This document shows positions 30,647 through 36,785 of a DNA stretch of 54,307 nucleotides, piece by piece. A program made the translations under genes and the position numbers. The number at the start of each line of letters is the position of its first letter. Position 1 is the stretch's first letter. A model generated the notes under the pieces. It was not told the DNA's origin and did not search any database. It worked only from the letters and a program-made list of their open reading frames with translations. This DNA is from Thermoplasmata archaeon (GTDB lineage Archaea > Thermoplasmatota > Thermoplasmata > GCA-020350865), in assembly GCA_020348445.1 (NCBI GenBank), contig CP070751.1:4137872-4192178 (forward strand), read 5' to 3'.

Positions 30647-31792
30647 ATGCCTGTCGATGACATTAGAGATACGTTGCTGACAGTGGTCTTTATAGTCGGA
30701 GTTATTGTGATTACTATTATGGTTTTTAGAATAATGCTTAAGGTTCGTCGGGGTTCAAAACCTAAAAATATGAAGGAGCCCAGGGTTTTGAAGGCTGTTT
30801 CTGCCACTCCAGATATGGACGACCTGTTCAATGCAATCACTTCCTCCAGAAGAATAGCCACGGATTTAAAGAGAAGAGGAATCGATACAAGCTCGGCTGA
30901 TGACTTGATTTCAAAGGCCAGTGAAGAATACGAGATTGGAAGGGAAGCTAAGGCAAAATTGTACATAAGTGAGGCCAAAGAGCTGCTTTTAAGATCAAAG
31001 AAAGAATGGGACGAAAAGACCGGTTTTGATGTGGTTCCCATAACTTCGACCATGGGGGAGAAACCCACTCTGAAAAAAACTCTGGATGTAGCGGATGAAG
31101 CGAGCCTAAGTACCTCAGAACCTGTCAAGCCCGATGAGGTTTTCCCAGAGCTTAAGAAAGCAGAAAAGAAAAAGCCAGATAACTACCTCCCCTCGAAATT
31201 TACGATATCCTTGGCGGGTACAGCAATCGAGAATGCCCAAAGGGAGGGTGCAAACGTGGGCGAGGCCCAAAGATACCTTATAGAGGCCAAAGCCTACTTT
31301 GATCGCGAGGATTACGACGGTGCTTTTAAATCGGCCCTATGCTCCAAGAGGGAAGCCGAAGCACTTCTTGGAATGGCTCCAACTACGGGGGAGGAGAGAA
31401 AGAGGGTGATGTCGGACTTGGCCATGGACACCGAGGAACTCAAGATATGCTCAATTTGCGGCAAGAATAGAATCCCTTACATTTGCATCGAGGTCGCGGG
31501 AGGAGAAGAGGCGACATGCAAAGAATGTTATGACAGGTCCATGGGAAAGATCGCATTGGAAGAAAAAAAGCTACCACCGCCACCACCTCCACCGCCTGAA
31601 GAAAAAGAGGAGGAAAAGGGGGAAGAGCAGAACTTCTGCCCCAACTGCGGTGCAAAGGTGAAAGAAGATGATGTTTTTTGCGGGAAATGTGGCAAACCGG
31701 TACAGGAGGAGTTAAAATGCGCGGGGTGCGGGACGAAGATTGAGCCAGGAGATGTTTTCTGCAGAAAATGCGGGGCTAGGATGGTTACTTAG
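30647..31792 (+). CDS. Single-TM-anchored helical protein with Cys-rich finger, Pro-rich linker and double Zn ribbon
   Basis: N-terminal TM; two similar helical repeats (A..LI..A...Y); CSIC..C..CKEC; CPNC..CGKC..CAGC..CRKC. Confidence 0.75.
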   Translation: MPVDDIRDTLLTVVFIVGVIVITIMVFRIMLKVRRGSKPKNMKEPRVLKAVSATPDMDDLFNAITSSRRIATDLKRRGIDTSSADDLISKASEEYEIGREAKAKLYISEAKELLLRSKKEWDEKTGFDVVPITSTMGEKPTLKKTLDVADEASLSTSEPVKPDEVFPELKKAEKKKPDNYLPSKFTISLAGTAIENAQREGANVGEAQRYLIEAKAYFDREDYDGAFKSALCSKREAEALLGMAPTTGEERKRVMSDLAMDTEELKICSICGKNRIPYICIEVAGGEEATCKECYDRSMGKIALEEKKLPPPPPPPPEEKEEEKGEEQNFCPNCGAKVKEDDVFCGKCGKPVQEELKCAGCGTKIEPGDVFCRKCGARMVT

Positions 31793-31807: not shown

Positions 31808-32851
31808 CTACTTTTTCTTCAAAGTCATTCTTCTTTTAGGCCTTGTATAGACCTTCTTTGGCATGCCCGAGGTTTCATCGAATTTAGTGTTTATACGCCC
31901 CAAATGGATTTCCTGTTCCTTTATCTCGGGAGAAAGATGCTTTTCAAATTCTGAGTAATTCATGTCATTCCAGGTGAGGTAGACTATGTAGTCCGCGATC
32001 TCGTTTTTCATGGACTCTGCTGCTTGCTCCAAATCGATTTTGCCCTTTGGAACGTATATGGTGGGAGTCAGGTTCATTATGGCCTTTATGGTCAATTCGC
32101 CGCCATTTGGAGTTATCCTGAAGAAATTTCCCTTTCCCTCCGAAGAATCCCCAGTACTCTTTTCAAAGGGCAGTATGCGCAGCACATTGCCCAAAGGACC
32201 CTGCTGGATATTAACATCATCATCCAAAAGTTCCCTATCCAAATCCGAAATAAGCTTCTCCTCGATTTCTCTTATCATTTTTGCTAAATTAGGTTTTTTG
32301 TCAAAGCTTTGTTCATATTTCAGATGGACCTTGGAGTTTATCTGGCGCATATGGTCCTTGAAGTTGATTGAGTTCACAAGGTTCTCCTTGATCTTCTTGG
32401 GCTTCTTTCGTTGCATCATATAGCACTGTATGTTCTCTACATCTGTCACAATTGAAACGTAGTTCTTCATCTTGCTGGACCTGCTTTTCAGCATGGCGTC
32501 ATCAGTGCCTGAGTGAAAGAGCTCAGAAACACCATAGAGCTTACGAAACTCACCTGTTTCGAAATCCATCTTAAATGGATGCGAATGGTACAATCCAACA
32601 ATGCCCACATTCCTTGGGAACATAACGGCAAGTTTCGCCTCCTCGGCAGGATCAGATTCTGCGCTGTATCGGGACTGCCTCTTGTAATTTGTGCAGGGCA
32701 CTGCATCGCAGATGTAGACAGTATCCTCAGTAAAAAATCCAGTGAGCCAACCCAAAACCTCAAAACCATGCTCTCTGGCACCCTCCAGAGCATGCTCGGA
32801 TATAACCCGTTTTAGGTCGCGTTTCATCACCAGGTTTTTTTGCTCAGCCAT
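31808..32851 (-). CDS. JAB/MPN+ (JAMM) metallopeptidase with ODR4-like C-terminal region; candidate modifier maturase/deconjugase
   Basis: EV.GWL.G, GLYHSHP, S-x2-D (HSGTDD); last gene of the UFM-like operon. Confidence 0.8.
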   Translation of the reverse strand: MAEQKNLVMKRDLKRVISEHALEGAREHGFEVLGWLTGFFTEDTVYICDAVPCTNYKRQSRYSAESDPAEEAKLAVMFPRNVGIVGLYHSHPFKMDFETGEFRKLYGVSELFHSGTDDAMLKSRSSKMKNYVSIVTDVENIQCYMMQRKKPKKIKENLVNSINFKDHMRQINSKVHLKYEQSFDKKPNLAKMIREIEEKLISDLDRELLDDDVNIQQGPLGNVLRILPFEKSTGDSSEGKGNFFRITPNGGELTIKAIMNLTPTIYVPKGKIDLEQAAESMKNEIADYIVYLTWNDMNYSEFEKHLSPEIKEQEIHLGRINTKFDETSGMPKKVYTRPKRRMTLKKK

Positions 32852-32868
32852 GATTTATTCACTCCGCT

Positions 32869-33750
32869 TTACTTGGTCATCTCGTCGAACATCTTGGCAG
32901 CTTCCTCGATTTTTCTGAGTTTTTCATCATCCAATTTATCCTTTGCCTCACCGCAGACAGGACATTTGGGGTCCCTCTCCCAATCGTACCTCTCTATCAC
33001 ACCCCTTATGCCGTTGTACATCAGATAATTGGCAACATCCCCGAATTCGAGTAGATACTTGAAGCCTTCCTGACACTGTAGGGCCGCGATTATGGTCATC
33101 GTGGTGGGAAGGGAGGTCAGGTGGCATATTCCAGTTTGTCTGTCCTTTCCAGGCTCCTCTAGTTCGAGGTAGAGCATCGGATCCTCTTTAACAGAAACTG
33201 TTTTTTCGGACTTTTCCTTTCCCAGACCCAAGGTGTGCCTGTGGCATCTGTAGCATGCTGTTTTTCCTGGTATCACCACCTGAACAGATCCTCTTATTCC
33301 GTCTAGGCTTGCTCCACCGTCTATGAACGTCCTCTTTTGCTCGACACATTTGGCGTTCATAAAAAGGCGAACACCGAAAGTGTCCACGCAGCCAAATATC
33401 ACATCCGATTTTCCCACCTCATCCATGAACGCTTTATACCCGTCCCCGGAGGTGATATTAAAGGGATGTGCAACGATATCGATTTGCTCATTGATCTCCA
33501 AGAGGTATTCCGAGAGTGCCTCCACCTTGAACTTGCCGATCTGATTGGGTTTGTATATCATCCTGTTCATGTTGGCCATCTCGAGAGTGTCATAGTCCAT
33601 GATAACCAATCTTCCAATGCCCACCCTTACTAAAATCTCGGCCACGGTGGCGCCCAGACCTCCCACTCCCACCACTAAGGCGCTCTTTTCGCGCAACTTC
33701 GAGAAATCGGCGAATTCAAATAGAGTCAGTCGCTGATATCTTTCGTCCAT
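32869..33750 (-). CDS. uba5: UBA5-like E1 activating enzyme (ThiF/MoeB/E1 superfamily)
   Basis: VGVGGLG, DYD..E.ANMNR, NIT....FMD, CVD, PG.TACYRC, GICHLTSLPTTM, KYLLEFG.V.NYL.YN, CPVC; start ATG 33750 (or TTG 33759). Confidence 0.85.
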   Translation of the reverse strand: MDERYQRLTLFEFADFSKLREKSALVVGVGGLGATVAEILVRVGIGRLVIMDYDTLEMANMNRMIYKPNQIGKFKVEALSEYLLEINEQIDIVAHPFNITSGDGYKAFMDEVGKSDVIFGCVDTFGVRLFMNAKCVEQKRTFIDGGASLDGIRGSVQVVIPGKTACYRCHRHTLGLGKEKSEKTVSVKEDPMLYLELEEPGKDRQTGICHLTSLPTTMTIIAALQCQEGFKYLLEFGDVANYLMYNGIRGVIERYDWERDPKCPVCGEAKDKLDDEKLRKIEEAAKMFDEMTK

Positions 33751-34229
33751 TGTAACCAACCTTTTTCTTTAAGATGGAAAATAACGCTCTGAAGCCAGTA
33801 GGACACCTCCCTTTTCAGATAAAGTGCGAGACTGCAGTGCTCGTTCCACCAGTAATTCTGCTCCATGTGCATGTCGCAGATGCGAAGGCCGAGGATAGGG
33901 TCATCAAGCTTTCTATCAGTGTAGCGCATGAGCTCCGGTATCCTTGCGGCAGGGGGAGTGTGCGGGTACGAATCAGTGAACACCAGTTCTATTAGGTAGT
34001 TTCTGCCCTCGGCTGTCAGGGTGCCCTCCCATCTTGTGGCATCATCGCCGATGGGTCTGATAGAGAACCACCTTTCCTCCTCCTGGTTCTTCTCCATGTA
34101 ATCAACGTACTGCATGTACTTCAAAAGAGCGTACTTCTCCTCTTTGACCCTAAGTGGCCACATCTCATTCCCGGGAGAAGCCACGGTTGAACATTGTAAG
34201 AAATAGAATAAATCAGGTTCTTGTTTCAC
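33726..34229 (-). CDS. ufc1: UFC1-like E2 conjugating enzyme
   Basis: W..R.KEE..AL..Y, WF, TRW.G, YP.T.P, PEL..T, RIC (catalytic Cys 33876-33878), W...C.LA, WL....L..KG.LQ. Confidence 0.82.
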   Translation of the reverse strand: MKQEPDLFYFLQCSTVASPGNEMWPLRVKEEKYALLKYMQYVDYMEKNQEEERWFSIRPIGDDATRWEGTLTAEGRNYLIELVFTDSYPHTPPAARIPELMRYTDRKLDDPILGLRICDMHMEQNYWWNEHCSLALYLKREVSYWLQSVIFHLKEKGWLQWTKDISD

Positions 34230-34324: not shown

Positions 34325-34585
34325 CTAGGTGCCCACAACAGATGGGTCTATGACATGGATATTCGTGCCCTGCTCGATGACTTTTTCAACGGTCCCGCCG
34401 GTAATCGGCGTTCCTGCAGGATATGTGGCACTGAGAATGCTGGGATCCTTGCCCTGTTTTTTTGCAGCCAAAACCAGTGCCTCCTGAAACAGCATCTCCT
34501 TTGGAACCTGGACCGTTACAACGGGCTTCTCCGGCTCTGAAATGAACGTGAAACGAAGTGCAACCTTATTGTCCATTCTAACCAT
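34325..34585 (-). CDS. ufm1: UFM1-like beta-grasp modifier with C-terminal VG-T
   Basis: KV..T..SEP..P...VP....F...L..AA...G..I..T...V...G....I....VG-T; colinear with UFM1 and gap-free over the first ~56 positions; GGAGTGA RBS. Confidence 0.8.
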   Translation of the reverse strand: MVRMDNKVALRFTFISEPEKPVVTVQVPKEMLFQEALVLAAKKQGKDPSILSATYPAGTPITGGTVEKVIEQGTNIHVIDPSVVGT

Positions 34586-34623
34586 AATCTCACTCCCTGA
34601 TTGTTAGAATGATTGCGTTGAGG

Positions 34624-34633
34624 TTATATATTT
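34624..34633 (-). promoter_or_regulatory. Candidate archaeal TATA box for the UFM-like operon
   Basis: AAATATATAA on the minus strand about 40 nt upstream of ATG 34585; only strong TATA-like run in that interval. Confidence 0.4.
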
Positions 34634-34853
34634 GTTGCGGTGTTGTTGTGAGATTTTTGAGGATAAATCTGGATTTGGGGATTATGAGGGCGGATATTAT
34701 CGCTTGGGAAATCATATTTGTGAAGTTTATCTTTGCCTATTAGAGGATGAACACCAAGAGCAATACGGGGGTGGATTTAATCCTCATTTTATATCGAGGA
34801 AATAATCCCAAAAGATTTATCTATTTTGACCCTATTCACAGTTCGGGAAGATA

Positions 34854-36329: not shown

Positions 36330-36785
36330 TTAACCGCCGCGCGGGACAATATGGGCCGAGTACTGACCGCCACCACCCATTGGCGTTACAAGTACAAGGT
36401 ATTGTCCCCCTCCTCCTTCAGGAAGTATATGGGCCATGTATCTACCGCTTCTGCCAAGAGGTTTAACCATAGTCCTGTATTGTCCTGCGCCGAGCTCGAA
36501 GATGTACTGTCCTCCTCCTCCAAGATCGAATACATATTGGCTACCACCTCCTAAGATGAAGCGGTATTGCCCACCACCACCTAATCTGATCATGTAATGC
36601 CCTCCACCGCCGAGGTTGAATACGTATTGCCCTCCTCCGCCAAGGTCGAACTCGTACCGACCAGATTCATCCAAGTCAATGACGTTCTCGCTGCTGGTGT
36701 CTGCAGTTGCTAGTCCTGGTAACAGACCCACAAAAAGAACAGCGAGTACGCCGATACAGATTACTTTGGTTCTTTTCATAAGCAC
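36330..36785 (-). CDS. Secreted protein made of about 10 GGGGQY-x-(hydrophobic)-x-L repeats; family not recognised
   Basis: Signal peptide (..LPGLATA); GGAG RBS; repeat array to the C-terminus. Confidence 0.7.
   Translation of the reverse strand: MLMKRTKVICIGVLAVLFVGLLPGLATADTSSENVIDLDESGRYEFDLGGGGQYVFNLGGGGHYMIRLGGGGQYRFILGGGSQYVFDLGGGGQYIFELGAGQYRTMVKPLGRSGRYMAHILPEGGGGQYLVLVTPMGGGGQYSAHIVPRGG
36333..36662 (-). repeat. Degenerate 30-nt (10-aa) tandem repeat, lengthening to 12-13 aa at the 3' end
   Basis: GGGGQYVFNL, GGGGHYMIRL, GGGGQYRFIL, GGGSQYVFDL, GGGGQYIFEL; synonymous codons differ between units. Confidence 0.85.

Follow-up and report, generated by a model that had tools for sequence, protein, structure and literature searches.

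A divergent UFC1-family E2 and its predicted UFM1-type conjugation cassette in a Thermoplasmatota archaeon

A 54,307-nucleotide (nt) stretch of the genome of a Thermoplasmata archaeon (GenBank assembly GCA_020348445.1, contig CP070751.1, positions 4,137,872 to 4,192,178 of the forward strand; hereafter the window) was analysed for an open reading frame (ORF) encoding a UFC1-family carrier enzyme (E2) of ubiquitin-like conjugation. The source genome is a single 5.16-Mb contig. The E2 gene is the second of a four-gene cassette in the order Ubl-E2-E1-JAB, where it stands together with genes for a ubiquitin-like modifier (Ubl) resembling UFM1, an activating enzyme (E1) resembling UBA5 and a JAB/MPN metalloprotease (Table 1). 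The E1 gene overlaps the 3' end of the E2 gene by 25-34 nt. The order of the four genes is kept in essentially every sufficiently long locus (30 species), even where the flanks are unrelated.

All motifs listed by the initial annotation were read in the minus-strand E2 frame. The translation carries WPLRVKEE (W-x2-R-x-KEE), RWF, ATRWEG, YPHTPP, PELMRYTDR, LRIC and YWL...KEKGWLQ, and the His-Pro-Asn (HPN) tripeptide is absent from the complete sequence of 167 amino acids (aa), as had been stated. The codons of Thr104 to Lys107 and of Cys118 were confirmed by direct reading of the raw DNA. The GTG codon is supported as the presumable true start by the upstream block DLFYFLQC-x-T-x-A-x-P, which is invariant in homologues, and a Shine-Dalgarno-like GTGAT element lies 3-4 nt upstream of it. 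Because this block is invariant, the 152-aa database gene calls for the E2 are considered truncated. Comparison with copies from the same genus gave a ratio of nonsynonymous to synonymous substitution rates (dN/dS) of 0.038-0.045 at a dS of about 2, which indicates a real gene under strong purifying selection. Residue counts were taken from 94 E2 family sequences of a separate protein-database search, 83 of them with the N-terminus present; since the motifs are nearly invariant in these homologues and dN/dS is about 0.04, they are not regarded as chance features. The G+C content of the gene matches that of its surroundings.

Table 1. Positions of the cassette genes, of selected codons and elements in the window, and of the canonical E2 loci in the source genome
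Feature	Position	Strand	Description
UFC1-family E2	33726..34229	minus	167 aa, GTG start; Pfam PF08694 39.7 bits, Foldseek, VIA
Cys13 codon, second invariant cysteine	34191..34193	minus	family-specific N-terminal block; 83/83 sequences
Thr104-Asp105-Arg106-Lys107 codons	33909..33920	minus	counterpart of UFC1 T106-A107-K108(-M109) in the hhalign register; residue frequencies
Predicted catalytic Cys118 codon	33876..33878	minus	gca, reverse complement tgc; aligns with human UFC1 Cys116
Trp145 codon	33795..33797	minus	counterpart of human UFC1 Trp145; hhalign; 93/94 sequences
UFM1-like modifier (Ubl)	34325..34585	minus	86 aa, end ...HVIDPSVVG-T; Foldseek UFM1
UBA5-like E1	32869..33759	minus	296 aa, possible start ATG 33750; PDB UBA5 163 bits
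E1 C-terminal tail	32869-32946	minus	roughly 25 residues, helical; LDDEKLRKIEEAAKMFDEMTK after last Zn CxxC pair
JAB/MPN metalloprotease	31808..32851	minus	347 aa, ~250-aa C-terminal extension; Pfam Prok-JAB 27.7 bits, JAB 20.7 bits
Membrane-anchored multi-zinc-ribbon protein, candidate fifth component	30647..31792	plus	381 aa; Pfam DZR, Zn_Ribbon_1
Cassette upstream region	34586..34640	minus	putative TATA-like aaatatataa and Shine-Dalgarno-like element GGGAGTGA, read from sequence
Canonical E2 operon L042	G000:C1:2563844-2567260		E1 440 aa, E2 178 aa, JAB 401 aa with C-terminal zinc ribbon
Canonical E2 locus L043	G000:C1:2154380-2157619		229-aa Ubl-like domain-E2 fusion

The E2 matched the Pfam family UFC1 (PF08694) over positions 11-153 of the 155 in the profile, scoring 39.7 bits against a cut-off of 25. 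The family of canonical E2s, UQ_con (PF00179), was matched with 17.6 bits, below its cut-off of 27 and over residues 43-97 only. A PF08694 match is precomputed for nearly all E2 homologues; NCBIfam gave no model for the E2 or for the Ubl. All significant matches of the single E2 sequence among PDB sequences were UFC1, and a 40-sequence family profile found UFC1 at E 5.6e-9 and the best canonical E2 only at E 0.95. Profile-profile alignment of the E2 family with eukaryotic UFC1 by hhalign gave a probability of 98.9 and an E-value of 1.3e-17 at 29% identity. When the family profile was run against 1.84 billion representative proteins, 48 were found, exclusively of the UFC1 type. Outside the family they were UFC1s of eukaryotes or members of a second UFC1-like group from archaea; PF08694 was present in 39 of 42 distant matches, and no canonical UBC E2 was among them.

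An AlphaFold2 model was built from the family alignment (predicted local distance difference test, pLDDT, 87.8; predicted template modelling score, pTM, 0.83). In a Foldseek search of the PDB, ranks 1-29 were all occupied by UFC1 at template modelling (TM) scores of 0.55-0.75, and canonical E2s reached 0.32-0.44. VIA comparison yielded Z 18.4 for human UFC1 (root-mean-square deviation, rmsd, 2.8 Å over 146 residues) and Z 17.9 for Leishmania UFC1 (2.0 Å over 144 residues). The next-best E2 outside UFC1 had Z 10.1, and the others were lower. The model ends after a single helix (134-156), lacking the C-terminal helices of canonical E2s.

These results were also set against the possibility that the ORF is a generic archaeal E2 of the ubiquitin or SAMP (small archaeal modifier protein) type, serving an ordinary tag as in Caldiarchaeum-type operons, with a superficial or convergent likeness to UFC1. 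One fold is common to all E2s, and canonical E2s do reach Z 8-10 with the model, but a gap of eight Z units separates UFC1 from every other E2. A UQ_con match exists, but it is weak and below its cut-off whereas that of UFC1 is above. The E1/E2/JAB operon format recurs in the canonical system of the source genome; the canonical E2s of this genome, however, carry the HPN motif (WHPNI and SHPNI) that is missing here, and the partners of the present E2 are specifically UBA5-like and UFM1-like. With the exhaustive profile search having yielded no canonical E2, the generic alternative is largely refuted and must be called very unlikely.

A maximum-likelihood tree was calculated under LG+C20 with the two HPN-bearing canonical E2s of the source genome as outgroups. 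The Thermoplasmatota E2 clade was monophyletic (support 100/97) and sister to a clade of Asgard-type and Korarchaeota sequences (97/90); both together were sister to eukaryotic UFC1, and the superclade of these three was split from the canonical E2s (95/79). The deep branching order is provisional because the branches are long. The E2 clade is clearly outside both canonical UBC and eukaryotic UFC1. The second archaeal group includes sequences from Promethearchaeota (P0101), Heimdallarchaeota (P0106) and Korarchaeota (P0111). Profile-profile comparison of the E2 family with this Asgard-type group gave a probability of 98.9 (E 2.2e-17), and that of the Asgard-type group with eukaryotic UFC1 a probability of 98.2 (E 6.3e-14). 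Profile search, structure prediction and tree thus bear out the UFC1-type assignment of the initial annotation, and the rooted tree showed no grouping with Prok-E2 or UBC sequences. The term orthologue, which had also been used, did not hold, since the sequences form a distinct archaeal clade sister to the Asgard-type one; the data support a divergent UFC1-family protein of archaea instead of a strict orthologue.

The tree also bears on a recent horizontal transfer of a eukaryotic UFC1 gene that has since evolved freely, an idea favoured by the published restriction of UFC1 to eukaryotes (PMC10183829). In the tree, the family forms a single clade on a long stem that falls outside eukaryotic UFC1, which refutes this explanation. 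Identity to eukaryotic UFC1 is only 22-29%, the whole cassette is present in 30 species, the G+C content matches the surroundings and purifying selection is strong, so that recent transfer has practically no probability left.

One copy of the E2 gene was present in each of the six species-level genomes of the order. No carrier was found among 400 other genomes sampled across the phylum; the family therefore appears confined to few lineages, which is no proof of its absence elsewhere. A motif-based scan of 185,579 species recovered 30 carriers with the cassette, all of them metagenome-assembled genomes labelled Thermoplasmata, Thermoplasmatota, Methanomassiliicoccales or Methanobacteriota. In a closed 3.2-Mb genome of the same genus (CP070739.1, loci L011/L006), the E1 match ended at residue 244 and no JAB gene was matched downstream by tblastn, which may point to a disrupted or rearranged cassette.

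The residues around the predicted active site are nearly invariant in the family. Position 104 is Thr in 92 sequences and Ser in two, position 105 is Asp in 94 of 94, position 106 is Arg in 91 and Lys in three, and position 107 is Lys throughout. Cys118, Asp119, Met120 and His121 are each present in all 94, Trp145 is present in 93, and position 149 is Val or Ile in 92. The T-D-R-K element is a signature of the family, whatever its alignment to eukaryotic UFC1. Cys118 was paired with Cys116 of human UFC1 by phmmer, hhalign and hmmsearch alike, which places the predicted catalytic residue where the UFC1 assignment requires it. In the hhalign register, Thr104 corresponds to Thr106 of the human enzyme, Asp105 to Ala107, Arg106 to Lys108 and Lys107 to Met109, followed by a four-residue insertion (DDPI), Cys118 opposite Cys116, Trp145 opposite Trp145 and Val149 opposite Glu149. 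Thirteen residues separate Thr104 from Cys118, compared with nine between Thr106 and Cys116 of human UFC1, in accordance with the few extra residues before the cysteine that had been noticed at the outset (four by hhalign). In both enzymes the Thr lies six residues from the PEL anchor that they have in common. In the model, a helix spans residues 98-103 and a strand begins at 107, a layout which we take to be like that of human UFC1. A second cysteine, Cys13, is invariant within the DLFYFLQC-x-T block and absent from the eukaryotic and Asgard-type UFC1 relatives.

Among the cassette proteins, the Ubl is conserved best (62-96% identity). Its model (pLDDT 89.4) retrieved UFM1 at ranks 1-12 in Foldseek with TM 0.77-0.82, while SUMO and ubiquitin reached 0.69 or less; the rmsd to UFM1 was 1.2-1.6 Å, apart from a fusion entry at 4.4 Å. 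A single-sequence PDB search with the Ubl gave 12 weak matches, all to UFM1 and the best at E 0.049. The protein ends in ...HVIDPS(V/I)VG, with the stop codon directly after it in most genomes and a short variable tail in few (a single Thr here). The Val-Gly end thereby parallels UFM1, which has a single-Gly RVG end and a cleavable tail. The cassette thus combines a UBA5-type E1 with a UFM1-type modifier whose single C-terminal Gly follows Val, as in the UFM1 pathway, the sequence evidence for the Ubl being weak.

The best PDB matches of the E1 were UBA5 with 163 bits and MoeB with 82 bits. The E1 has an invariant predicted catalytic segment G-x-C212-x-x-(T/A/V)-SLPTTM, two zinc-binding CxxC pairs and no rhodanese domain. 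The JAB gene follows the E1 gene, a position conserved across loci. In 22 of 27 loci, a homologous zinc-ribbon gene converges on the JAB gene, the two lying tail-to-tail; the protein encoded in the source genome combines a membrane helix at its N-terminus with a poly-Pro stretch and three zinc ribbons of the form CxxC...CxxC, and is a candidate adaptor, E3-like factor, tag-binding partner or substrate.

ThiF-type E1s and beta-grasp proteins ancestrally perform sulfur chemistry, so that the E1 and Ubl might serve mainly in sulfur transfer (ThiS/MoaD/SAMP-type), with the E2 as a scaffold or a non-catalytic variant resembling ubiquitin E2 variants (UEV-like). MoeB, ThiF and UbaA models of NCBIfam are indeed listed for the E1, all of them far below their cut-offs, whereas UBA5 is its closest match by a two-fold bit score. 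Sulfur transfer needs no E2. Cys118 and its surrounding motif are invariant (94/94), and the cassette includes a JAB isopeptidase and an E1 without rhodanese domain. Very little probability is given to this alternative.

Bil operons have the same four-part composition of Ubl, E2, E1 and JAB, and the E2 could accordingly belong to a Bil- or CBASS-type (cyclic oligonucleotide-based antiphage signalling system) defence module that tags viral proteins. PADLOC matched its CBASS E1-E2 models to the E1 (up to 71 bits) and the E2 (best match 12.7 bits, E 0.0087; the 2023 library may miss some Bil models), but these matches are generic or marginal, and there was none for the Ubl. Defence proteins commonly contain SIR2 and TPR domains, and a distant relative (P0129) carries both as fusions. 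The cassette itself occurs in exactly one copy in all six genomes of the order and is flanked by housekeeping genes; its V4R/THUMP-methyltransferase neighbours are shared with a genome whose E2 is 81% identical. The tag is its most conserved part and the E2 evolves slowly, unlike a mobile, fast-evolving defence island. Because the cassette is single-copy among housekeeping genes and the PADLOC matches are marginal or generic, a defence role is considered quite unlikely. In P0129, a metagenomic protein of 866 aa, a SIR2-like domain and TPR repeats are joined to a UFC1-like E2 domain at the C-terminus, with another residue in place of the catalytic Cys (MISHDHM); this protein may be a non-catalytic or defence-type derivative.

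Elsewhere in the window, positions 36330-36785 of the minus strand hold a 151-aa ORF that, behind a signal-like N-terminus, consists of little else than GGGGQY-x-hydrophobic repeats.

Docking of the E2 to its E1 was examined by complex prediction. The E1 dimer with the E2 scored 0.57, and the best of three controls 0.00; the runs agreed in at least 65% of contacts, with partner pLDDT of at least 82. Of 80 solved complexes 58 attained the pass mark, as did 2 of 110 mismatched pairs, and the range of 0.60 or under contained only seven of those 80 complexes together with both passing mismatches. The prediction therefore lends weak support to docking, and the pass may reflect likeness only, because solved UBA5-UFC1 complexes exist. 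Most E1s of the family stop right after the last zinc pair (CPVCG) and hence lack the long UBA5 tail that recruits UFC1. Apart from this order, only one other lineage (L015, L016) has a C-terminal tail. The E1 tail segment LRKIEEAAKMFDEMTK had been considered as a UBA5-like UFC1-binding peptide; this was rejected, as a PDB search gave only spurious designer-PPR repeats and no UBA5.

In human UFC1, the Thr106 hydroxyl is hydrogen-bonded to the Lys108 amide, and the oxyanion hole consists of the Lys108 C-alpha and the Met109 amide (PMC12032130, PMC9627666). The carbonyl of Lys108 is held by the indole of Trp145, and the K108A, K108R and K108M variants are inactive (PMC12032130). Glu149 touches Thr106 yet is dispensable, and E149I is active (PMC12032130, PMC9627666).

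Taken together, the ORF is likely to be the E2 gene of an archaeal cassette for UFM1-type conjugation, and this E2 probably acts as the thioester carrier of that minimal system. The UFM1-like tag would expose its C-terminal Val-Gly after loss of one Thr, probably through the JAB protease. The UBA5-like E1 would adenylate the tag Gly, then hold the tag as a thioester on Cys212 and hand it to Cys118 of the E2, from where it would be discharged onto lysines of target proteins. If human UFC1 is taken as the guide, the backbone amide of Arg106 would be pinned by the hydroxyl of Thr104 and the Arg106 carbonyl held by Trp145; the fixed backbone (Arg106 C-alpha and Lys107 N-H) would stabilise the oxyanion, with Arg106 or Lys107 lining the cleft for the incoming lysine. 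The predicted active site would be an HPN-less one of the UFC1 type in which the hairpin before the Cys is four residues longer. The analysis itself shows the family membership, the fold, the conserved residues and the operon partners; the thioester chemistry, what each residue does, the targets and whether an E3 takes part are inferred.

Several observations count against assigning the E2 and its cassette to the UFC1 and UFM1 systems in this form. Arg106 is the very residue that inactivates human UFC1 when it replaces Lys108; because K108R is inactive, Arg106 would need a different local geometry, or Lys107 would do the job. Next, MAFFT paired Lys107 with human Lys108, and phmmer and hmmsearch placed the gap elsewhere. 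The replacement of TAK by TDR, as originally proposed, thus agrees with the hhalign register, the PEL-to-Thr spacing and the secondary structure of the model, but not with these other alignments; it is the best-supported register and is not settled. The N-terminal helical extension of UFC1 (alpha0), to which the initial annotation had referred, is absent from this E2, whose conserved block, aligned with the segment behind alpha0, starts after only five residues and whose open frame leaves room for no more than seven others. The Ubl family profile found no match among PDB sequences at E up to 1. VIA gave Z 8.6-10.6 for many unrelated Ubls without singling out UFM1. Finally, UFL1 (PF09743), DDRGK1 (PF09756) and UFSP (Peptidase_C78, PF07910) gave no match in the 5.16-Mb genome, which is 82% complete by CheckM, in searches of unproven sensitivity that also left control genomes blank for two of the three models. 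As these three proteins went undetected, the downstream logic is taken to differ from that of eukaryotic UFMylation.

UFM1, UFC1, C53 and UFSP2 have been described as exclusive to eukaryotes (Picchianti et al. 2023, PMC10183829), and Ufm1 was reported from nine Asgard clades and from no other prokaryote (Koestlbacher et al. 2026, PMC12962969). The E2s of Asgard archaea have been treated generically in the literature, and no paper describing a UFC1-type system in Thermoplasmatota was found in the collection searched. A UFC1-family E2 with UFM1-like and UBA5-like partners in non-Asgard archaea alters the view of the origin of UFMylation. It is a tentative idea, and somewhat more doubtful than probable, that tag, E1, E2 and JAB, perhaps with a zinc-ribbon adaptor, make up a minimal and self-sufficient system of the UFM1 type, one that has a common ancestor with eukaryotic UFMylation and predates the split of Asgard archaea and eukaryotes. 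If so, UFC1-type chemistry arose in archaea, and the E2 would show that the oxyanion and cleft architecture of UFC1 is compatible with Arg in place of Lys108, a change lethal to the human enzyme, by means of a longer hairpin and an added Lys. A four-protein cassette without detectable UFL1 and DDRGK1 is also amenable to rebuilding in the test tube. The family offers a natural experiment on the TAK element, since it retains Thr and Trp145, has a hydrophobic residue at position 149 like the active human E149I mutant, and shows Arg at the place of Lys108 in 91 of 94 sequences and Lys in three, although K108R inactivates the human enzyme. How the archaeal E2 tolerates the Arg would test the model of oxyanion stabilisation for HPN-less E2s.

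The archaeal E2 shares with eukaryotic UFC1 (PDB 2Z6O, 3KPA and 7NVK) the Pfam family, an HPN-less E2 core with an aligned Cys, the PEL-x3-Thr spacing, Trp145 and a single long helix after the active site without further C-terminal helices. Both are likewise paired with a UBA5-type E1 and with a tag of the UFM1 type that ends in Val-Gly. It differs in being only 22-29% identical and in the residues around the active site. The T-x-K arrangement (Thr106, Lys108) is found in 12 of 12 aligned eukaryotic sequences, whereas the archaeal enzyme keeps the Thr and, in the best-supported register, has Arg in place of the Lys, with an invariant Asp at Ala107 and an invariant Lys after the Arg. The hairpin before the Cys is four residues longer, the Cys is followed as in C-D-M-H-M instead of the eukaryotic C-L-T-D-H-F, and Glu149 is replaced by Val or Ile. 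Furthermore, the archaeal E2 lacks alpha0, has the extra invariant Cys13, and is encoded in an operon with a JAB protease in a genome in which UFL1, DDRGK1 and UFSP were undetected.

The UFC1-like E2s of Asgard archaea and Korarchaeota are also archaeal, mostly match Pfam UFC1 and form the sister clade; they share C-x-x-H-M after the Cys and the REV-x-x-W helix. They differ by the absence of the PEL-x3-T-x-[KR] element and by a much longer insert before the Cys, and they are slightly further from eukaryotic UFC1 (E 6.3e-14, compared with 1.3e-17 for the Thermoplasmatota family). They often have fused N-terminal domains or lie beside ESCRT (endosomal sorting complex) genes. A Heimdallarchaeota locus (L041, WJIK01000029.1) holds two genes for UFC1-like E2s of 191 and 192 aa, an ORF of 91 aa, a ThiF E1 gene and two Prok-JAB genes, and this cluster adjoins two EAP30 (ESCRT-II-like) genes and a Band_7 gene.

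With the canonical UBC E2s of the source genome (L042 and L043), the present E2 has the UBC fold and the catalytic Cys in common, and with L042 the E1/JAB operon as well. The canonical enzymes differ by their HPN motif, their C-terminal helices and their UQ_con scores of 62-78 bits, compared with 17.6 bits for the UFC1-type E2. Together with these two canonical E2s, the UFC1-type E2 makes up three E2 systems in one Thermoplasmatota genome.

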